Of a DNA stretch of 64,000 bases, positions 39,294-48,828 are shown in pieces (positions within the stretch are counted from its first letter, which is position 1; each line of letters begins with the position of its first letter). The notes under the pieces are model-generated. The model had not been told where the DNA came from. It ran no database searches and was given only the letters and a program-made list of their open reading frames with translations. The position numbers and the translations under genes were made by a program. Location of the stretch: positions 50,056 through 114,055 of the forward strand of contig JBIIBC010000003.1 of assembly GCA_044239605.1 (NCBI GenBank), read 5' to 3'. The DNA comes from Bacteroidia bacterium (lineage in GTDB: Bacteria > Bacteroidota > Bacteroidia > UKL13-3).

Positions 39294-39521
<228 letters not shown>

Positions 39522-39536
39522 TTAATTAGTACCCCA

Positions 39537-39575
39537 AAAAGCCCGGTTGTTTTAAATCGGGCTTTATTTTATTTG
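39537..39575 (+). terminator. intra-operon hairpin / partial terminator after atpE
   Basis: AAAGCCCG-12 nt-CGGGCTTT followed by a T-rich run. Confidence 0.55.
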
Positions 39576-39603
39576 AAAAAACTTTTATAAAATTATATAT
39601 ACA

Positions 39604-40098
39604 ATGGATTTAGTAACCCCAAGTATTGGTTTGATTTTTTGGAGTTCGATAGCATTTTTTATACTATTTTTTGTATTAACAAAATTTGCTTGGAAACCAA
39701 TTACCAAAACCCTTAAAGAAAGAGAAGATAGCATTGATGAAGCCTTAAAATCGGCTGAAACTGCTCGTTTACAGTTGGAAAGTTTAAAAACAGACAACCA
39801 ACGCTTATTAAACGAAGCACGTGCTGAGCGTGATATGTTATTAAAAGAAGCAAACGAAATTAAGGATCAAATTTTAGCTAAAGCTAAAAGTGATGCTAAA
39901 AGCGAAGGCGACAAAATGATAACTGCAGCAAAAGAGGCAATTGAAATGGAGAAAGTAAATGCCATGAACCAATTGAAAACTCAAGTTGCTAACCTTTCAG
40001 TTGATTTAGCTGAAAAAATATTACGTAACAAAATGGAAGACAGAAGCCAACAAGAGGTTTTTGTAAATGAAAGTTTAAAAAATATAACACTGAACTAG
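39604..40098 (+). CDS. atpF: F0F1 ATP synthase subunit b
   Basis: 164 aa. One N-terminal TM helix plus a long charged coiled coil. Confidence 0.8.
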   Translation: MDLVTPSIGLIFWSSIAFFILFFVLTKFAWKPITKTLKEREDSIDEALKSAETARLQLESLKTDNQRLLNEARAERDMLLKEANEIKDQILAKAKSDAKSEGDKMITAAKEAIEMEKVNAMNQLKTQVANLSVDLAEKILRNKMEDRSQQEVFVNESLKNITLN

Positions 40099-40099
40099 T

Positions 40100-40651
40100 A
40101 TGTCGGATTTTAGAGTAGCCAGTCGTTATGCAAAGTCATTAGTTGATTTAGCTATTGAACAAAACCTGCTAGAGGTAGTTTGTGCAGATATGAAATTATT
40201 TAAACAAACTATTGAACAAAATCAATCACTTGAAAACTTGCTTAAAAGCCCAGTTATTAAAGGTGACAAAAAATTAGCAGTTATTACTCAAATTTTTGCT
40301 AGTTCATTTAATAAATTAACTTTCTCGTTTATATCAATTATTGTACGTAAACAACGCGAAATGATATTCCTTTCAATTTGCGATGCGGTTATTGCACAAT
40401 ACAACGAAATAAACAAAATTGCTACTGCTTCGGTGAAAACTGCAGTAGAAGCTTCAGCTGAAATTAAAGCTGAAATAAAAAACTTTTTACAACAACAAAG
40501 TGGTAAAAACGTAGAACTTAAAATGCATGTAGATCCGTCTTTAATAGGTGGAGTTATGATTCAAATGGAAGACCGTTTGTATGATGCAAGTATTTCGGGT
40601 AGCTTACGTAAAGCCAAACAACAGTTATTAAACACATATATCTCAAAATAA
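40100..40651 (+). CDS. atpH: F0F1 ATP synthase subunit delta (OSCP)
   Basis: 183 aa. Correct position and OSCP-like sequence. Confidence 0.8.
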
Positions 40652-40664
40652 ACAAAAATTAATT

Positions 40665-42242
40665 ATGGTAGAGATTAGACCTGACGAAGTATCAGCAATT
40701 ATCAGAGAGCAATTAAGCAACTTTAAATCGGATGCTGAATTACAAGAAGTAGGAACGGTACTTCAAGTGGGCGATGGTATTGCCCGTATTTATGGATTAA
40801 CTAAAGTTCAATCTGGAGAGTTAATCGAATTTGCAAATGGCGTACAAGCAATTGTATTAAATTTGGAAGAAGATAACGTTGGAGCTGTATTATTAGGCTC
40901 TAGTGATTCAATTATAGAAGGTGATACAGTTAAAAGAACTGGTAAAATTGCATCTATTAAAGTAGGTAATGGCATGGTTGGTCGTGTAGTTAATACATTA
41001 GGTTTACCAATTGATGGTAAAGGACCAATTGCTGGTGATTTATATGATATGCCTTTAGAGCGTAAAGCTCCTGGTGTTATTTACCGTGAGCCAGTTAAAG
41101 AACCATTACAAACAGGTATTAAGGCTATTGATGCCATGATTCCTATTGGTCGTGGACAACGTGAGTTAGTTATTGGTGACCGTCAAACTGGTAAAACAGC
41201 AGTTTGTATTGATGCCATTATCAACCAAAAAGAATTTTATGAAGCTGGTAAACCAGTTTATTGTATATATGTAGCTATTGGACAAAAAGCATCTACAGTT
41301 GCTCAAATTGTAAGTACTTTAGAAGCTAATGGAGCTATGAAATACACTACAGTTGTTACAGCTACTTCATCAGATCCAGCTCCAATGCAGTTTTACGCTC
41401 CAATGGCTGGTGCTGCAATAGGTGAGTTTTTCCGCGATTTAGGAAATCCTGCTTTGGTTGTTTATGATGATTTATCAAAACAAGCAGTAGCTTACCGTGA
41501 AGTTTCATTATTGTTACGTAGACCTCCAGGACGTGAGGCATACCCAGGTGACGTATTTTACTTACATAGCCGTTTATTAGAGCGTGCTGCTAAAATTAAC
41601 GCTACTGATTCTATTGCGCAAGCAATGAATGATATTCCAGATTCAATCAAACATTTGGTTAAAGGTGGTGGTTCATTAACTGCTTTACCAATTATTGAAA
41701 CACAAGCTGGTGACGTATCTGCATACATTCCAACTAACGTAATTTCAATTACCGATGGACAAATTTTCTTAGAGTCGAATTTATTTAACTCTGGTATTCG
41801 TCCAGCTATCAACGTTGGTATCTCGGTATCGCGTGTGGGTGGTAATGCGCAAATTAAATCAATGAAAAAAGTAGCTGGTACTTTAAAATTAGATCAAGCT
41901 CAATACCGCGAATTAGAGGCATTCTCTAAATTTGGTTCTGACTTAGATGCAGCAACTAAATCAGTATTAGCAAAAGGTGCTCGTAACGTAGAGATTTTGA
42001 AACAAGGTCAATTCTCACCATTACGTGTTGATCAACAAGTAGCAATTATTTACTTAGGAACTAAAGGTTTATTAAGCAATGTTCCTGTTAATAAAGTGCG
42101 TGAATTCGAAGCTGAGTTTTTAAGTTATATGGAAAATAAACATAAAAACACATTAGATGATTTGAAAAAAGGATTATCGGATGATGCTGCTGCAACTATT
42201 GAAAAAGTTTGTAAAGAATTATCAGCAAAATACGTAGGTTAA
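40665..42242 (+). CDS. atpA: F0F1 ATP synthase subunit alpha
   Basis: 525 aa. Walker A GDRQTGKT and a highly conserved alpha-subunit sequence. Confidence 0.95.
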
Positions 42243-42330
42243 ATATTAAATTTTTAGCAATTGGCAATAAGCAATTGGCAAATACTGCCAGAAGCAAGTT
42301 GCTAATTGCTAAGAGCTTTTATAATAAAAA

Positions 42331-43212
42331 ATGGCAAATTTAAAAGAAGTTAGAATAAGAATAGCATCAGTTACCTCTACACAACAAATAACCAAAGCCA
42401 TGAAATTGGTTTCGGCTACTAAATTGCGTAGGGCACAAAATGCAATTACTTTAATGCGCCCTTATGCAGTAAAGTTAAATGGCATTTTAAGTAATTTGTC
42501 TGATAGTATTGATGTAGATTCTTTAAAAGTTTATTTCGATACTCGTCCTGTAAAAAATGTATTAATAGTTGTTATTACTAGTGATAGAGGTTTATGTGGT
42601 TCATTTAACGCAAATGTTATTAAAATGGCCAACAAAACTATCAATGAAAAATATGCAGAACAAAAAGCTAATGGTAATTTAAGCGTTATCGGAATTGGCA
42701 AAAAAGGACATGAATATTTTTCAAAACAGGCAGTTAATTATATTGATACCTTTAAGGATTCATTGTTAACACCTAATTCTGAAACAGGATTTGCTATAGG
42801 TGAGTTTATTTTGAATCAATACAATTCAGGTAAATTTGATGCTGTTGAAATAGTTTATAATCAATTTAAAAATGCTGCTACTCAAATTTTAAGTGCAGAA
42901 CAATTTTTACCTATTAATACCGCAAGTTTAGCTACTGACAGTGTTAAGAAAAACGATTATATTTTTGAACCAAATAAGGAAGAAATTTTATTAGAATTAA
43001 TTCCTAGAATTTTGAAAACACAATTATTCAGATGTATGCTAGATTCTTTAGCTTCAGAACATGGTGCTCGTATGATTGCTATGGATAAAGCTACTGATAA
43101 TGCTGGTGAATTATTGAAATCATTAAAAGTGGAATACAATAGAGTTCGTCAAGCTGCAATTACTACCGAAATTTCGGAAATTGTGGGTGGAGCTGCTGCA
43201 TTAAGCGCTTAA
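42331..43212 (+). CDS. atpG: F0F1 ATP synthase subunit gamma
   Basis: 293 aa with conserved N- and C-terminal gamma-subunit helices. Confidence 0.9.
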   Translation: MANLKEVRIRIASVTSTQQITKAMKLVSATKLRRAQNAITLMRPYAVKLNGILSNLSDSIDVDSLKVYFDTRPVKNVLIVVITSDRGLCGSFNANVIKMANKTINEKYAEQKANGNLSVIGIGKKGHEYFSKQAVNYIDTFKDSLLTPNSETGFAIGEFILNQYNSGKFDAVEIVYNQFKNAATQILSAEQFLPINTASLATDSVKKNDYIFEPNKEEILLELIPRILKTQLFRCMLDSLASEHGARMIAMDKATDNAGELLKSLKVEYNRVRQAAITTEISEIVGGAAALSA

Positions 43213-43235
43213 AACAACAATTTTAATTATAAAAA

Positions 43236-43269
43236 AAACCTGCATTTTAAGTAAATGCAGGTTTTTTTG
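43236..43269. terminator. bidirectional intrinsic terminator (end of the atp operon and end of the GH57 gene)
   Basis: AACCTGCATTT-loop-AAATGCAGGTT flanked by A- and T-runs. Confidence 0.8.
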
Positions 43270-43272
43270 TGT

Positions 43273-44472
43273 CTATACTTTTTTGGCTTCAAACTTATCA
43301 AGCTCCATTAAAAAATCGCTAAATGAATTCATAAAATAAATATAAGCATCATAAGGACTCTCGTATGGGCTGAAATATTTATGAACATCGCCATCGCTCC
43401 AAAACTTGGTACACATGTAGTAAAAATGATCACTGGTTAGCATTTTTTGCCAAGTATCAATAATGGCTTTATCAGCTGTGGCATAAACTCTTTTTTCAAT
43501 AGAGTAAATTTTAGCTATGCTTTCATCCTGCATAGGGTTGCCAAGCCAAGCAGATAAATCTCGCTCCATATCAGCCCAACTTGTTAATTCGTGTGCATCG
43601 TACACATCTCTTGTAGGATAAGCAGCCACTGTTTCTGAAGGAGTTTTAAAAGAAAAATCTTTATGTTTTAAAATATACTCAGGCATGTGCCACATAAAAT
43701 CAAAAATACCAGTTTCGGCCCATTGGTGCTCACCAAAAGTTTCGTAATCCATAAACAAGTTAATGGTCTCGCCCTGGCCAGCAATAGAGTGACACCAACT
43801 AGCAAACTTATCGGCTGTTAAAGGCCAACTTTCCCACCCACGATTACTAAATCTAAAAGCTATATCATCGCTTAGTTGATAATTTTTAAGCAATGATTTT
43901 ATTTTAGTAACGTTTGGTGCTTGGTATAAATAATTGGGGGTTCTCCCTTTTAAAAGCCTATCTACCCCTTCACAAATAATGCCTTCGTAACCTAAATCTT
44001 CAATGAATTTGGCTAATTCATTATTATACTGCAATTCAGTATTTCTAAATACTTTAGGCGTATAGTTAAAATGTTTTTTTAACAATGCTTTGTGTTTTTC
44101 AACTTGCTTTACAAATTCATCTTTACTAAAAATATAAGCCAACGAATGATAATAAGTTTCACTTATAAACTCCACACAGCCAGTTGCTGCAAGGTCTTTA
44201 AAACTTTGCAATACATCGGGGCGCCAAGTTTCAAATTGCTCCAAAGCCACACCACTAATGGCATAACTTATTTTAAATTCGCCATTATGCTTTTTTATTA
44301 AATCAAGCATTAATTTATTAGTAGGCAAATAGCAGCGCTCGCTCACCTTATCTAACACTTGTCTGTTTTTTTCATCATCGTAATAATGATGGTTATTGCC
44401 AATATCAAAAAAAGTGTATTCCTTTAAACGATATGGTTGATGTACTTGAAAATAAAAACAAATTGATGGCAT
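43273..44472 (-). CDS. glycoside hydrolase family 57 (alpha-glucan-active enzyme)
   Basis: 399 aa. The N-terminal FQVHQPYR motif is diagnostic of GH57. Confidence 0.8.
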   Translation of the reverse strand: MPSICFYFQVHQPYRLKEYTFFDIGNNHHYYDDEKNRQVLDKVSERCYLPTNKLMLDLIKKHNGEFKISYAISGVALEQFETWRPDVLQSFKDLAATGCVEFISETYYHSLAYIFSKDEFVKQVEKHKALLKKHFNYTPKVFRNTELQYNNELAKFIEDLGYEGIICEGVDRLLKGRTPNYLYQAPNVTKIKSLLKNYQLSDDIAFRFSNRGWESWPLTADKFASWCHSIAGQGETINLFMDYETFGEHQWAETGIFDFMWHMPEYILKHKDFSFKTPSETVAAYPTRDVYDAHELTSWADMERDLSAWLGNPMQDESIAKIYSIEKRVYATADKAIIDTWQKMLTSDHFYYMCTKFWSDGDVHKYFSPYESPYDAYIYFMNSFSDFLMELDKFEAKKV

Positions 44473-44763
44473 AGGAGTATATTTTTGATTTATGAATTAT
44501 GATTTGTGAAATTGGTGAATTGCTTAATTGTTTATTCGATTAATTGTTTAATCGTTTAATTGCTTAACTGTTTAATTGTTATACTGTTGAATTGTTTATT
44601 CGTTTTATTGTTGAACTGTTATAGTGTTGAATTGCTTAATTGTTTATTCGATTAATTGTTTAGCTGTATTGTCATATTAACAAATCAACTTAATTAACTT
44701 TATTTACTTATAAACTTAATTAACTCCTTTAACTTATTAACTCCATTAACTAAATAAACCTCA
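44473..44763. repeat. degenerate 16-bp tandem repeat array (consensus TTAATTGTTTAWTCGW, about 10-12 units) followed by a TTAACT-rich sub-array; non-coding
   Basis: Hand alignment gives units at 44524, 44540, 44556, 44572, 44588, 44604, 44620, 44636 and 44652, all in a 16-bp register. A 34-bp block is repeated exactly at 44517 and 44629. There are stop codons in every frame. Confidence 0.8.
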
Positions 44764-46044
44764 TTAAGGAATAATCGACTCGTAAACTTCCATTACTTTT
44801 AAGGCTGTATTTTCCCAAGTAATGTGTTTTAGGTCTTCGTTTGCTTTATCTACCATTTCGGTGCTTAATCCATTATAATCAAGCGATGCAATGATGTATT
44901 GAGCTAATTTATGAGTATCCCAAAAGTCTATTTTTAATGAACTACTTAATACCTCCCCTGCTCCACTGGTTTTACTCATAATTACAGGTAAACCGTATTG
45001 CACAGCTTCTACTGCACTTAAACCAAAAGGCTCACTCATGCTAGGCATACAATACACATCACTTATTGCTAGCAGTTCATTTAATTTTTGCTTGTTTAAA
45101 AAGCCAGTAAAAAAGAATTTATCGCCTAAACCAAATGAGGCAATTTTTTCGATTAATGGTTTGTGTAAATCGCCACTGCCAGCCATTACAAACTTTACAT
45201 TTTTATGGTGTTGCAATACAATACGTGCAGCTTCTACAAAAAATTCAGGACCTTTTTGCATAGTTATCCGTCCAAAGAAAATAACTAATTTATCTTTATG
45301 CGGACTTTCTTTTACAGTATGTTTTACTGTTTCAACACCATTGTGAATGGGAGTAATTTTATATTCAGGAATGCCATAATGATGATGACAAATACTACCA
45401 GTATAATGACTTACAGGAATAACCCTATCGGCTAACTGCATAGCACGTTTTTCTAAATCATATACCCAATTTCTGCTATCGGCCCCTGAGCGGTCGTATT
45501 CGGTTGAATGCACATGCAAAACCATTGGTTTACCTGTAAGCATTTTTAATTCAATGGCAGGTAAAAAAGTCATCCAATCGTGTGCATGTATTACATCAAA
45601 CTCTTGCGTAAGCGCATACTGAACCGATATACGCGAAAATTCGATGGCCTTTTTTATAACATCGCCAGCGTATAATGCATCTATTTCAAAGGGTTCAATA
45701 TTATTATTATAAACTTCGTAAAACTTTTGGTTAATTGACTCGTGGTTATCTATTTTGGCATAAGGGTTTACACCCGCGTTAACCTGATATGAATTTAAAC
45801 CATGGTCACCATGTTTACTTGGTTTACTAAAAATCTCACGTAATTGCTCCCTACTAAAAGCATTTAACCCTATTAGTTCAATATTGGGTATTTTGAAATT
45901 GGGAACACTTTTGGGAATGATCATTTTTACATCAGCCAAAGGGGAAAGTGCTTTGCATAATCCCAAACAAGCTACACCCAATCCACCACTTATTACTGGC
46001 GGAAATTCCCATCCAAACATTAATACTTTAGGTCGTTTTTGCAT
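44764..46044 (-). CDS. family 4 glycosyltransferase (glycogen/alpha-glucan synthase-like, GT-B)
   Basis: 426 aa. GT-B fold with the conserved C-terminal E-x7-E region (MPSMSEPFGLSAVEA). Confidence 0.7.
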   Translation of the reverse strand: MQKRPKVLMFGWEFPPVISGGLGVACLGLCKALSPLADVKMIIPKSVPNFKIPNIELIGLNAFSREQLREIFSKPSKHGDHGLNSYQVNAGVNPYAKIDNHESINQKFYEVYNNNIEPFEIDALYAGDVIKKAIEFSRISVQYALTQEFDVIHAHDWMTFLPAIELKMLTGKPMVLHVHSTEYDRSGADSRNWVYDLEKRAMQLADRVIPVSHYTGSICHHHYGIPEYKITPIHNGVETVKHTVKESPHKDKLVIFFGRITMQKGPEFFVEAARIVLQHHKNVKFVMAGSGDLHKPLIEKIASFGLGDKFFFTGFLNKQKLNELLAISDVYCMPSMSEPFGLSAVEAVQYGLPVIMSKTSGAGEVLSSSLKIDFWDTHKLAQYIIASLDYNGLSTEMVDKANEDLKHITWENTALKVMEVYESIIP

Positions 46045-46120
46045 GTAGATATTTTAATTCAATTTTATTAAATTACTTCAAGCAATATATTTATTTCTAT
46101 TTCAAACTACAAAATGTTTT

Positions 46121-46149
46121 AAAAATATTATAAAATAAAACAACTAACT
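46121..46149 (+). repeat. left copy of a 29-bp direct repeat bounding the lipoprotein gene array
   Basis: AAAAATATTATAAAATAAAACAACTAACT. The partner at 48829-48858 differs at one position. Confidence 0.6.
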
Positions 46150-46192
46150 ATTTTAAATATGGTTGGTTTTTTACCAGATGTTATGCTGAGAG

Positions 46193-46340
46193 TTGCCTAT
46201 GGTTGGTGTTCTCACCAAACAATAACAGTTAAGTGCTTGTCTGAGATAAATAATTAGCAACTTATAAGTATCTATATTTTTTAGTTAATGCAAGGAGCTG
46301 TTTTTTTATATCAAAAAAGGTTGGTTAAAACACCAACCGC
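46193..46340. repeat. conserved intergenic element E1 (twin-hairpin element: terminator plus leader hairpin)
   Basis: Homologous to E2 and E3. Contains GGTTGGTG-TTCT-CACCAAAC (46201-46220) and GGTTGGTT-AAAA-CACCAACC (46319-46338). The second hairpin is followed on the minus strand by a U-run, so it acts as the terminator of the gene above it. Confidence 0.7.
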
Positions 46341-46348
46341 ATAGAAAT

Positions 46349-46957
46349 CTATAAAGTTAAAGTGTAAATAAGATTGCTATCTATTTGAATTTGAATTATA
46401 CCATATGATTTATTGTAAATTATTGGATTATTATTTTTTCCATAAATTTTAACTCCCAAAATCATTTTACTCCCACATTGTACTTGTAAATTGTATTTAC
46501 TTGTATTATTATAATATCCACTGTATGCCAAATGTGAATCACTAAAACTATTATTTATAATAACATCAGTATTTATTTCATGATACTCATTGTGATATAC
46601 CCAATAAAATAAATTAGACAAATTGAAATTATTTCCTTTATATTCTACATCCACCTGTTCAAAATTATAATTATCATATTCAGGGCAGTCCATACTAGTT
46701 ACACTATTTTTAGTGGTTTTTTTCATAAAGTTATTTTTACCTTGTCCTTTTAGAATAGCTGTATCACCTTGATTGCTAATAAATATTAGGGTTTCGTTGC
46801 CTGTGTATGGTATTTGTGCCTTAGTGTTATCATCTATTAAATAATTAAAATTTTTTGGGGTGTAATTACTGCCATTGCAGGGTTGCTTGCTGCATGCTGA
46901 AAATAACAAAAGTATAATTATTAAACTTTGGGTTTGAAATAGTTTGGCTGTTTTCAT
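46349..46957 (-). CDS. hypothetical lipoprotein, paralog 1 of 3
   Basis: The ORF extends to TTG 47002, but ATG 46957 gives MKTAKLFQTQSLIIILLLFSACSK, a lipoprotein signal with lipobox LFSAC. Clear similarity to 47157..47759 (IPYTGNETLIFISNQGDTAIL versus IPYIGNETLTFISNQGDTAIL). Confidence 0.6.
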   Translation of the reverse strand: MKTAKLFQTQSLIIILLLFSACSKQPCNGSNYTPKNFNYLIDDNTKAQIPYTGNETLIFISNQGDTAILKGQGKNNFMKKTTKNSVTSMDCPEYDNYNFEQVDVEYKGNNFNLSNLFYWVYHNEYHEINTDVIINNSFSDSHLAYSGYYNNTSKYNLQVQCGSKMILGVKIYGKNNNPIIYNKSYGIIQIQIDSNLIYTLTL

Positions 46958-46978
46958 ATGTTGTTTTTTAAAATTGTT

Positions 46979-47127
46979 TTTGCCTATAGTTAGTGTTCTC
47001 AAAAACCAAAACAGTTAAATGCAAGTTCTAAGATGAATAATTAGCAACTTAAGAGTATTTATAATTTTTAGTTTAATGCAATGAGTTATTTTTTTATATC
47101 AAAAAAGGTTGGTAAAACAATAATCGC
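46979..47127. repeat. conserved intergenic element E2 (decayed copy of the twin-hairpin element)
   Basis: Same backbone as E1 and E3, but both hairpins have lost complementarity: CACCAACC has become CAAAAACC in one and CAATAATC in the other. Confidence 0.65.
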
Positions 47128-47156
47128 AAGCAAAATAGTAGAATATTTTTTATTAT

Positions 47157-47759
47157 CTATTTAATTAAGGTGTAAGTTAAACTTGAATCAATTATAATAC
47201 TAAGTATACCCACATTCTTATTGTAAATAAATGCTGGTTTTCCATCTTCTCTATTAAAATTATATCCATTAATAATATTGCTCCCAACATTAATAGGACT
47301 ATTATATCTGCTTATATCATTATATACTCCAATATCTGCAAAATAATTTGCTTTGTCATTAATATTTACATTAATATATATGCTATTATACTTATCTATG
47401 TACATACTATAAATTACGTTAAATAAATTAAAATTGTTACCTTGATATTCAATATCTATGTGTTCGTATGAATAGTTATCTTCTTGAGGACATTCAGGGT
47501 TACTACTTACCTTTACTTTTTCCTTTAATATATAGTTATTTTTCCCTTGCCCAACTAAAATTGCCGTATCACCTTGGTTGCTAATAAATGTAAGGGTTTC
47601 GTTGCCTATGTATGGTATTTGTGATTTGGTGCTATCGGGTAATAAATAGTTAAAAGTTTTTGAGGTGTAATCGCTACAAGGGCTCTGTTTGCTGCAAGCT
47701 GCAAACAACAAAAGAAAAAGTAATAAACTTTGGGTTCGAAATTGTTTGGTTATTTTCAT
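47157..47759 (-). CDS. hypothetical lipoprotein, paralog 2 of 3
   Basis: ATG 47759 gives MKITKQFRTQSLLLFLLLFAACSK, a lipoprotein signal. The ORF tracker starts at TTG 47774. Confidence 0.6.
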   Translation of the reverse strand: MKITKQFRTQSLLLFLLLFAACSKQSPCSDYTSKTFNYLLPDSTKSQIPYIGNETLTFISNQGDTAILVGQGKNNYILKEKVKVSSNPECPQEDNYSYEHIDIEYQGNNFNLFNVIYSMYIDKYNSIYINVNINDKANYFADIGVYNDISRYNSPINVGSNIINGYNFNREDGKPAFIYNKNVGILSIIIDSSLTYTLIK

Positions 47760-47794
47760 GATATGAATTTTCAAATAATGGATAAATTACACAT

Positions 47795-47940
47795 TGCCTA
47801 TAGTTGGTGTTCTCACCAACCAAAACAGTTAAATGCAAGTTCTAAGATGAATAATAGAAACTTAAGAGTATTTATAATTTTTAATTTAATGCAAGGAGTT
47901 ATTTTTTTATATCAAAAAGGTTGGTGAAAACACCAACCGC
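47795..47940. repeat. conserved intergenic element E3 (intact twin-hairpin element)
   Basis: GTTGGTG-TTCT-CACCAAC (47803-47820) near the downstream gene start. GGTTGGTG-AAAA-CACCAACC (47919-47938) followed by a U-run on the minus strand is an intrinsic terminator for the upstream paralog. Confidence 0.7.
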
Positions 47941-47956
47941 AGGCAAAATATTCTTT

Positions 47957-48607
47957 TCATTTAGGTAAATAGTTAAACTCTGTATTTATTAAATTATTTT
48001 TTATTGAAAAGAAACCTTCTGTTTTATTAATGTATGACATTCCTGAAATAGAATCATTTAAATTATTAAATATGTATACTACATTCTTATATATTCTATT
48101 TCCTCTCTCAATACTATCAAAAAAAACTGTTCCGTTTTTAGAGCCAATCCTAAAGTCTCTAACTAAAAAATTTAATTCGTTAAATTTAACATTAATGACA
48201 TCTATGGCTCGGAAAGAAAATAAATTGGAATTAACATACCCATGCTCCACATCAAAACTCCCATTTCCTTTAGTAGTTATATAGGTATTGTGTATGGTTT
48301 GGTAGCAATCTTTATCGTAACCTGTGTTAGGGTTTCCCCAGCCATTTTCACAATACCAAGTAGTATCTGTTTTGGTTTTTACAAAGGTTAAGGTATCGCC
48401 TTTATCGCTTGTAAAGCTTATGGTATCAAAGGCAGGGTTAGTAAAATAAGGTGTTTGGTTTAACTGCGCTGCGGTTAGGTAATAATAATTGGTTTTGTGT
48501 TCCACTTTATCGTATTCTTCTTTTACGCAACTTTGCGTTAGCATAATTATTGTTATTATGCTTAGTAGTTTTAGTTTTATAATTATGGTATAGTTTAGTA
48601 TTTTCAT
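47957..48607 (-). CDS. hypothetical lipoprotein, divergent paralog 3 of 3
   Basis: 216 aa. Signal peptide with LTQSC lipobox. Shares the DTISFTSDKGDTLTF core with paralogs 1 and 2 but is more divergent. Confidence 0.5.
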   Translation of the reverse strand: MKILNYTIIIKLKLLSIITIIMLTQSCVKEEYDKVEHKTNYYYLTAAQLNQTPYFTNPAFDTISFTSDKGDTLTFVKTKTDTTWYCENGWGNPNTGYDKDCYQTIHNTYITTKGNGSFDVEHGYVNSNLFSFRAIDVINVKFNELNFLVRDFRIGSKNGTVFFDSIERGNRIYKNVVYIFNNLNDSISGMSYINKTEGFFSIKNNLINTEFNYLPK

Positions 48608-48828
48608 TGGTATATAGTTTTTTCAAATAATGGATAAATGACACCTTTAAGCATTACCTAAAAACAGGTATTTTTTATTAAAACAAACATTGGTAATTTT
48701 AATACCAATAGCAACACTGCATTTGTGGTATTTTACTTTAAAAACACAATGTACTATTTATTAGTAGTTTATATTTAAAATAAGCTTTAATAGTATGGTA
48801 AATAATATTTTACAAAATGGAAGTAGGT

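Follow-up and report, generated by a model that had tools for sequence, protein, structure and literature searches.

Tandem arrays of 7-, 8- and 9-bp units between a glycosyltransferase gene and a GH57 gene in uncultured freshwater Bacteroidota

Repeat arrays next to start codons

Long simple sequence repeats (LSSRs) with units of 5–11 nt are present in prokaryotic genomes (Mrazek et al. 2007, as far as summarised in PMC4679880), those with 6–9-nt units being said to be rarely reported (PMC4692102). Arrays of TAACTGA and other heptamer direct repeats have been described immediately before start codons in Beggiatoaceae, Cyanobacteria and five Bacteroidetes (MacGregor 2015, PMC4679880). The array described here occupies the 291-bp intercistronic spacer (44473–44763) between a glycosyltransferase (GT) gene and a GH57 gene, and is located in a window of 64,000 nt (JBIIBC010000003.1 50,056–114,055, assembly GCA_044239605.1), which is the whole stretch of DNA that was analysed and to which all coordinates given without a locus name refer. 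Both genes are on the minus strand, and the order on the gene strand is GT stop codon, spacer, GH57 ATG. The array is of a kind already known, the long simple-sequence repeats next to start codons. On balance the spacer is probably a compound LSSR, a minisatellite of the variable-number tandem repeat (VNTR) type with 9-, 8- and 7-bp units, and it seems somewhat more probable than otherwise that this repeat has expanded an operon spacer into a long unstructured mRNA spacer and does not represent promoter or regulator sites. An initial interpretation of the window's letters (the sequence-only reading) had offered a 16-bp unit with promoter, regulator-binding and slippage roles; the array is real, its period is corrected to 8 bp, the promoter and regulator roles are unsupported and slippage is supported.

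The spacer resembles LSSRs and VNTRs in its head-to-tail units of 7, 8 and 9 nt, a length far beyond chance, a non-coding position, an organization not in multiples of three, and copy numbers that change in unit-size steps between relatives; a short-unit tandem array, in-register copy-number polymorphism and a non-coding site are all present. It differs in being compound, with three unit lengths in a fixed order and higher-order periods of 16, 48 and 112 bp, and in lying inside a probable operon, between two cistrons. A further difference from LSSRs is that the 64 kb contain no other repeat of this size and give no sign of a genome rich in such repeats.

The TAACTGA-type arrays, of up to 43 copies among Bacteroidetes and Cyanobacteria, share their intergenic regions with other short repeats; the spacers of the closest relatives are short and repeat-free, indels are of unit size and contigs end in repeats, and the function was left open with translational roles proposed (PMC4679880). 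The present array behaves like that class. Membership of the TAACTGA family is rejected on unit sequence, the present units having 8 and 9 nt: tandem TAACTGA (TAACTGATAACTGA) is absent from both strands of the window and of all fetched loci, and there is a single TAACTG at 44565. Genome-wide dispersal of the unit, a trait of the TAACTGA type, whose many sets mostly lie shortly before start codons, is not seen in the sequence searched (64 kb from this genome and ~9 kb per relative). The short tandemly repeated repetitive (STRR) sequences of cyanobacteria are likewise short heptamer arrays in intergenic or intercistronic DNA, and specific heptamers are dispersed at many loci of heterocystous species. 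The spacer shares with them short tandem units and an intergenic or intercistronic position, but its units are lineage-specific and occur at one locus only within the sequence examined.

Simple-sequence contingency loci (phase variation) include simple-sequence repeats (SSRs) in 5′ untranslated regions (UTRs), such as the AGAT repeat of Moraxella uspA2 (cited in PMC4679880) and an SSR of Haemophilus (PMC12721329). The present array is similarly a slippage-prone repeat in a probably transcribed region before a start codon, where copy number could modulate expression. However, its units are long and degenerate (~68–79% matches), with a lower expected slippage rate, and GH57 is a housekeeping storage-polysaccharide enzyme of a free-living bacterium. 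Nor is the array placed to switch reading frame or promoter spacing. Since it lies in no open reading frame (ORF) and between no promoter boxes, and does not differ among samples that have the same flanks and 100% identical GH57 genes, a classical on/off contingency locus, one of the roles first proposed, is unlikely.

Organization and alleles of the spacer

The spacer runs on the mRNA from ~9-nt units through a short transition, the 8-nt array and decayed 7/8-nt units to ...AAATCAAAAATATACTCCT-ATG. Its parts, mapped in part with Tandem Repeats Finder (TRF), are as follows.

44663–44763, minus strand: GT-proximal sub-array of ~9-bp units with a short transition (TRF 44683–44767)
44510–44662, minus strand: main array of 19 in-register 8-bp units (TRF, register and column counts)
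44516–44550: exact 35-bp block, copy 1 (exact-match extension)
44628–44662: exact 35-bp block, copy 2, located 112 bp (14 units) from copy 1
44473–44509, minus strand: decayed 7/8-bp units (TCACAAAT, CATAATTC, ATAAATCA) leading into the translation-initiation region (sequence layout, relatives)

The main array is described by TRF with a period of 8 (19.1 copies, score 124; plus-strand consensus AATTGTTT) and also with a period of 48 (score 154). Autocorrelation gives a self-identity of ~0.69 at every multiple of 8, 0.735 at 16 and 0.75 at 48; the super-periods are 16, 48 and 112 bp, and 17 overlapping 72-nt copies occur at exact 8-bp steps. No other 150-bp stretches of the 64-kb window rank as high in periodicity as those of the array, which bears out the head-to-tail repeat seen in the sequence-only reading, although several of its dimensions change. 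The 16-bp unit is a super-period of the basic period of 8, the 8-bp array ends near 44662–44669 and does not span 44524–44683, and the exact duplicate, correctly spaced at 112 bp, is 35 bp long from 44516 and 44628 instead of 34 bp from 44517 and 44629.

On the mRNA strand the unit is nAnCAATT (consensus AAACAATT), with 19 consecutive units free of indels; the A at column 2 and the C at column 4 are invariant in 19/19 units, and the other six columns vary. The second sub-array is also confirmed (TRF 44683–44767, period 9, 9.7 copies, with additional periods of 17 and 26). Its mRNA-strand units are GTTAAT[G/A]GA, GTTAATAA, GTTAATTAA and alike (GTTAATnnn), joined to the 8-bp array by the transition GTTGATTTGTTAATATGACAATACAGC. 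They are C-poor and rich in TAA and TAG stop codons, the first 40% of the spacer containing 20 G versus 5 C. At the other end, the initiation region (...AAATCAAAAATATACTCCT-ATG) is identical in eight of nine complete clade spacers and slightly different in L004. The gap is non-coding, as first described: it has no coding potential and no long ORF. Just two TTG ORFs of 20 aa or more reach into it, one of 31 aa on the plus strand and one of 22 aa on the minus strand at the GT-proximal edge.

The 16-mer unit has 12 matches with 2–3 mismatches outside the array, compared to 9.2 expected for the whole window, and the 9-mer pair does not recur beyond chance in the 64 kb. In all 172 fetched loci a three-unit pattern matches only this spacer and one small array in L031. 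With the unit not present elsewhere in the window and no terminal inverted repeats at the array, a dispersed repeat or miniature inverted-repeat transposable element is rejected.

The closest lineages, with GH57 genes 90–98% identical in DNA, provide eight complete alleles, all different in length (115, 123, 163, 214, 241, 275, 291 and 403 bp; L001 has 123, L002 115, L003 403, L004 214, L005 163, L163 275 and L172 241 bp). L006 (GH57 ~85% identical) adds another allele, of ~225 bp, and the L169 allele is partial. The clade alleles contain the same three unit types in the same order and differ in copy number and in the predominant unit variants. Between the window and L003, the one pair aligned, there are in-register indels of 96 bp and 16 bp plus ~9 substitutions. 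These VNTR-like length differences (spacers of 115–403 bp) support the proposal that copy number changes by slippage. L001 and L002 are nearer to the window in their flanking genes (97%) yet have far shorter arrays; the array is different in every lineage with a GH57 divergence of at least 2%, and relatives that are at most 89% identical are without it.

Identical spacers are found in pairs of independent samples with 100% identical GH57 DNA (L001 and L166, L002 and L168), as read from consensus assemblies, which hide minor variants. Two Logan contigs of one run, L162 and L081, match both ends of the window array exactly and break within the 35-bp duplicate: L081 starts 73 bp upstream of the GH57 ATG, inside the first copy, and L162 ends inside the second. 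Because of these matches the arrays are taken to be real and reproducibly assembled; they are stable over very short divergence. Misassembly, or collapse and expansion of repeats in short-read metagenome assemblies, is accordingly a very improbable source of the alleles, although tandem repeats are a classic cause of such errors and the k=31 assembly contigs L081, L162 and L169 do break inside the array. Besides the agreement between samples and with the Logan contigs, the higher-order copies differ by substitutions and are resolvable with 150-nt reads, and the alleles differ in unit sequence as well as in copy number. The array would serve as a strain marker for this group of uncultured freshwater Bacteroidota, and short-read assemblies can be expected to break there.

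The ~97% identity of the window and L003 arrays was considered as a sign of purifying selection and rejected, the locus being mosaic and the 97–100% tract including the adjacent coding ends; the shared allele is best read, from these alignments, as a shared or recombined tract and not as constraint. Over ~39300–46200, blocks of 97–100% identity to L003 (also to L001 and L002) alternate with blocks of 85–91% inside single genes, a mosaic that suggests frequent homologous recombination among these freshwater lineages.

The alleles come from several sources. Exact look-ups of the GH57 and GT proteins yielded no more than two short contigs, both of one sample, and a look-up with the identical AtpG protein yielded more alleles; a metagenome scan contained nothing closer than 89%, and hence no alleles of this clade and only arrays in distant lineages. 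The records of five metagenome-assembled genomes (MAGs; L004, L058, L067, L072 and L006) are titled Bifidobacterium, Akkermansia or Methylacidiphilales and are probably mislabelled or mis-binned.

The sequence-only reading also raised iterated regulator sites. The array would then be a series of sites for a sequence-specific factor—a DNA regulator, or an RNA-binding protein of the S1, cold-shock or RNA-recognition motif (RRM) type—at an A.C core every 8 nt, and would control GH57 translation. Two columns that are invariant among six that vary fit such sites, as does the nAnCAnTT unit type kept in L006 at ~85% GH57 identity, and S1, Csp and CsrA-type proteins have been proposed for the analogous TAACTGA arrays (PMC4679880). 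However, sites differ in both number and sequence among lineages whose flanking genes are 97% identical. Near relatives have from a handful of units (L001, L002) to ~33 (L003), one unit variant can be entirely replaced by another (CAGCCATA in L001, CAACAATC in L172), the units of other lineages at this junction are quite different (e.g. AATTCCCT, TAATCACT, GTAAACC, ACTGCCN), and the unit is confined, within the window and the 172 fetched loci, to this spacer and the small L031 array. Concerted evolution of a tandem array explains retention of the core without selection. Binding sites are an unlikely explanation, and a sequence-specific regulator is unnecessary to explain the observations.

Probable transcription unit and GH57 initiation region

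The genes on either side of the spacer, and the hairpins that flank the pair, are located as follows.

44764–46044, minus strand: upstream cistron, a 426-aa GT4/GT5-like glycosyltransferase, glycogen-synthase-like (ORF list, Pfam)
43273–44472, minus strand: downstream cistron, a 399-aa GH57 family protein (Pfam PF03065, 263 bits, E 4e-78)
46319–46338, minus strand: intrinsic-terminator-like hairpin of the preceding gene (GGTTGGTGTTTTAACCAACC then TTTTTTGATA)
43231–43268, minus strand: terminator hairpin after GH57 (CCTGCATTT-ACTTA-AAATGCAGG then T8)

Pfam matches confirm both gene assignments of the sequence-only reading. The GT protein matches Glycos_transf_1, Glyco_transf_5 and Glyco_transf_4, with a starch-synthase-like N-terminal domain, and its subfamily-level NCBIfam matches are every one under the cut-off, with nothing more specific; the GH57 protein has no relative among Protein Data Bank (PDB) sequences at E≤1e-5. 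The GT stop codon (TAA) is at 44766–44764 and the GH57 ATG at 44472–44470. GT precedes GH57 on the same strand in ~73 of 80 related loci from species-representative genomes, all of them MAGs of uncultured Bacteroidota or Bacteroidia, many of pond or lake origin, and the spacer in relatives is mostly 5–30 bp, with one sub-group near 100 bp. This conserved order with mostly short spacers indicates that the ancestral state is a co-transcribed pair, and the two genes are most simply read as an operon with a short ancestral spacer; by this argument they would form a two-gene alpha-glucan operon of an uncultured freshwater Bacteroidota lineage. The hairpin at 46319–46338 marks the upstream boundary of the transcription unit, and an A-run on the opposite side suggests that the 43231–43268 terminator may also serve the convergent atpG. 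A combined sigma-70 and terminator scan finds no terminator-like site inside the spacer.

Part of the surroundings varies as well. The region upstream of GT (46100–48800) is hypervariable among close relatives and unalignable in L001, L002, L004 and L005, in which the genes flanking it are 90–99% identical. It contains three ORFs of ~205–217 aa without a significant family match; the first two are 52% identical to each other, have a lipoprotein-like look (an N-terminal hydrophobic segment followed by ACSKQ) and both give weak sub-threshold BamJ-like matches. A perfect 21-bp tandem duplication (GCAATCGGAGCTGGACTAGCC, 1.9 copies) is located at 39324–39363 between two ATP-synthase genes; relatives have a 71-aa c-subunit gene at this site, and the duplication is probably inside that gene.

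The sequence-only reading treated the gap as promoter and leader of GH57 and did not take the strand of both genes into account. The leader part stands, in that the spacer is untranslated RNA directly before the GH57 start; the promoter part is not supported, given the conserved GT–GH57 pair, the lack of a terminator between the genes, and a minus strand that has no exact match to the Bacteroidetes −7 box (TAnnTTTG) in 44473–44763. An internal promoter or UP-element is quite improbable. In this scenario a separate GH57 transcript would start from a Bacteroidetes-type promoter in the G/A/T-rich GT-proximal half, with the G-poor array as its 5′ UTR, which agrees with a long AT-rich spacer and with one-mismatch −7-like sequences (TTGATTTG, TAAGTTTA) near the junction of the two sub-arrays; some distant relatives with ~100-bp non-repetitive spacers also keep TATnTTCGT, a possible internal promoter, ~25 nt ahead of the ATG. 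However, the gene strand of the gap has no exact −7 box, which the sigma-A arrangement pairs with an upstream −33 TTTG, TTGATTTG is missing from the spacers of L001, L002, L005 and L006, and sigma-70-type sites are not enriched (31 versus 22.5±4.3 expected from shuffles). An exact −7 box (TATTTTTG) is present on the plus strand at 44480–44487, in the conserved GH57 initiation region and pointing into the array. The relatives L007 and L082, at 89% identity, do not conserve this box, which could either give rise to an antisense transcript or have arisen by chance from the A-richness of the leader.

The spacer is not predicted to fold. Rfam searches over 43000–47000 (E≤10) give no match in the gap, the weak leader- and terminator-type matches clustering near the GH57 terminator (43180–43310) and being counted as noise, and the whole spacer folds no better than shuffles (z = −0.51). 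The 170-nt leader (150 nt before the ATG and 20 nt of coding sequence) has a predicted −10.2 kcal/mol, versus −27.4±7.0 for random 170-nt genome windows, of which only 0.25% fold as weakly; this follows from its A-rich, G-poor composition. The sole local AU hairpin does not persist among relatives, being disrupted in L003 and missing from L001 and L005, and neither a family match nor a stable conserved fold points to a structured cis-regulatory RNA. Pairing of the G-containing half with the C-containing half was rejected, there being no conserved complementarity and the copy numbers of the halves varying independently. The spacer is also unusual in its lack of start codons: the first AUG, GUG or UUG met upstream of GH57 is 203 nt from its start, the maximum among the 52 predicted genes of the window (median 26.5 nt, next longest 81 nt), and the corresponding distance in relatives is 110–315 nt where any such codon occurs.

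Relatives with short spacers have nearly G-free A/C/T sequences that end in ...AAAACAACAACATT-ATG (e.g. ATATTAAAACAACAACATT). Because of this composition in distant relatives, the GH57-proximal 8-nt units, (A/C)AACAATT, look like iterated copies of an ancestral A/C-rich, G-free initiation region. Under the favoured reading of an expanded operon spacer, the arrays would have been seeded from the initiation region and from post-stop sequence, and would grow and continue to change by replication slippage or unequal recombination in unit register. The array would be transcribed within the bicistronic mRNA. Its main consequence would be the replacement of a 5–20-nt coupling spacer by a 100–400-nt untranslated, non-folding tract without AUG, GUG or UUG for ~200 nt, which for Bacteroidia ribosomes, as these initiate at whichever AUG is first accessible in unstructured RNA, may be a permissive landing and sliding zone for independent GH57 initiation; copy number would shift the GH57:GT ratio gradually, if at all.

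These proposed workings fit the published model of initiation in Bacteroidia (PMC6847099; PMC7797042). Initiation in Bacteroidetes is tuned by an unstructured initiation region, with AUG depleted near starts, and the 30S subunit may bind the unstructured region and from there reach the start codon by lateral diffusion (Baez et al. 2019, PMC6847099). Shine-Dalgarno pairing is not used by Bacteroidia ribosomes (PMC6847099; PMC7797042). The present leader resembles the initiation regions described in PMC6847099 in being G-poor, A/C-rich, structure-free RNA without an upstream AUG directly before the start, but the published features span about −20 to +20, whereas this tract is ~200 nt long and repetitive. 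As a looser parallel, an enhancer role of the tract is putative, and the comparison with omega of tobacco mosaic virus (TMV) is an analogy only. G-poor CAA-type leader enhancers such as TMV omega do exist.

Recurrence at the GT–GH57 junction

Arrays with a period of 5–12 and at least four copies were sought with TRF over 707 kb (81 loci and the window). Of the 35 arrays found, ~26 are in the GT–GH57 spacer. Among intergenic regions of at least 80 bp, arrays occur in 14 of 32 junction spacers versus 6 of 196 others (Fisher p = 1e-9), and in 7/13 versus 5/195 (p = 4e-7) after collapsing, for which junction spacers were grouped in 88%-identity GH57 clusters and L013 and L023 were counted once among the other regions. 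Array-bearing loci occupy only a few parts of the GH57 tree, and independent origins number perhaps 3–8. In distant Bacteroidia (GH57 54–76% identical) the spacer contains unrelated 7–8-bp arrays, located in the fetched loci as follows.

L011, 3810–4001: junction array
L030, 3773–4001: junction array
L043, 3901–4001: junction array
L047, 3853–4001: junction array
L055, 3896–4001: junction array
L068, 2051–2168: junction array
L071, 3873–4001: junction array
L088, L093, L106 and L157: junction arrays immediately before the GH57 match

The units at this junction in other lineages are AATTCCCT, TAATCACT, GTAAACC, AAAATCA and GACTATN, with ACTGCCN and GACTGTC in the metagenome set. The 459-bp GT–GH57 spacer of L093 (~1040–1500) has an 80-bp higher-order repeat (2.2 copies, 90% matches), each copy containing runs of ACTGCCN heptamers.

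The array-bearing spacers share a compositional polarity. In all 15 (the window and 14 loci) the GH57-proximal 40% is G-poor and C-rich on the mRNA strand, and in 13 of the 15 the GT-proximal 40% has more G than C; 15 non-repetitive spacers show no such polarity. In the array-bearing spacers the GT-proximal part is also rich in stop codons, and the GH57-proximal part lacks AUG, GUG and UUG. This strand-specific pattern is only partly explained, the C-poor half being without an established rationale. Short C-poor 7–8-bp arrays are also located directly after the stop codons of other genes (L043 5241–5276, L044 6486–6532, L013 7360–7391, L023 5152–5183 and L031 3181–3212). An ATGATAA-type heptamer is present at another locus of L013 and L023 and in the GT–GH57 spacers of L030 and L093, a recurrence that suggests there may be dispersed heptamer families in those genomes.

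The recurrence bears on the possibility of a selected expression rheostat, in which array length would set GH57 output relative to GT, through the efficiency of independent initiation, mRNA stability or Rho-dependent polarity on a long untranslated, unstructured tract with C>G, and slippage would create heritable quantitative variation in glycogen architecture. We regard this as unlikely. Several Bacteroidia lineages have arrays of different units at this junction, the rest of these loci seldom contains any, and the polarity is strand-specific. A content of C>G in unstructured RNA is a general character of Rho loading sites, and the main array has 25 C versus 10 G in 152 nt on the mRNA strand with no predicted structure. 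Copy-number-dependent expression from 5′-UTR repeats is known as well, e.g. for the AGAT repeat of Moraxella uspA2 (as summarised in PMC4679880). Against this, lengths of 115–403 bp among close relatives show no apparent preferred value, most relatives manage with spacers of 5–20 bp, and the restriction to a few parts of the GH57 tree leaves perhaps no more than 3–6 independent origins. The Cs follow mostly A and not a pyrimidine and are 8 nt apart, unlike the usual context and spacing of Rho sites.

A broader version is somewhat less probable again: that many Bacteroidia GT–GH57 junctions carry a maintained, lineage-specific two-part repeat spacer acting as an evolvable translational uncoupler or rheostat, with slippage tuning glucan-chain synthesis against GH57 activity. 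The two parts would be, equally tentatively, a C-free, stop-rich array after the GT stop codon and a G-free, start-codon-free array before the GH57 start.

Several of these observations weigh against the view of the spacer as a neutrally expanded operon spacer. The enrichment of arrays at the junction, together with their strand polarity, hints at selection or a locus-specific mechanism beyond neutral slippage; the invariant A and C columns, shared as a unit type with L006, may be a binding motif and not a product of concerted evolution; one-mismatch −7-box-like sequences such as TTGATTTG are present in the GT-proximal part; and both co-transcription and the effect on GH57 translation are deduced from the DNA.

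By itself the array is one more bacterial VNTR. Only two of its features may repay further work, the recurrence at one gene junction and the compositional polarity. If the polarity reflects selection, these spacers would be a natural experiment on initiation at an internal cistron where ribosomes ignore the Shine-Dalgarno sequence, and an uncoupler or rheostat, if real, would give free-living bacteria a contingency mechanism that adjusts storage-polysaccharide structure quantitatively.

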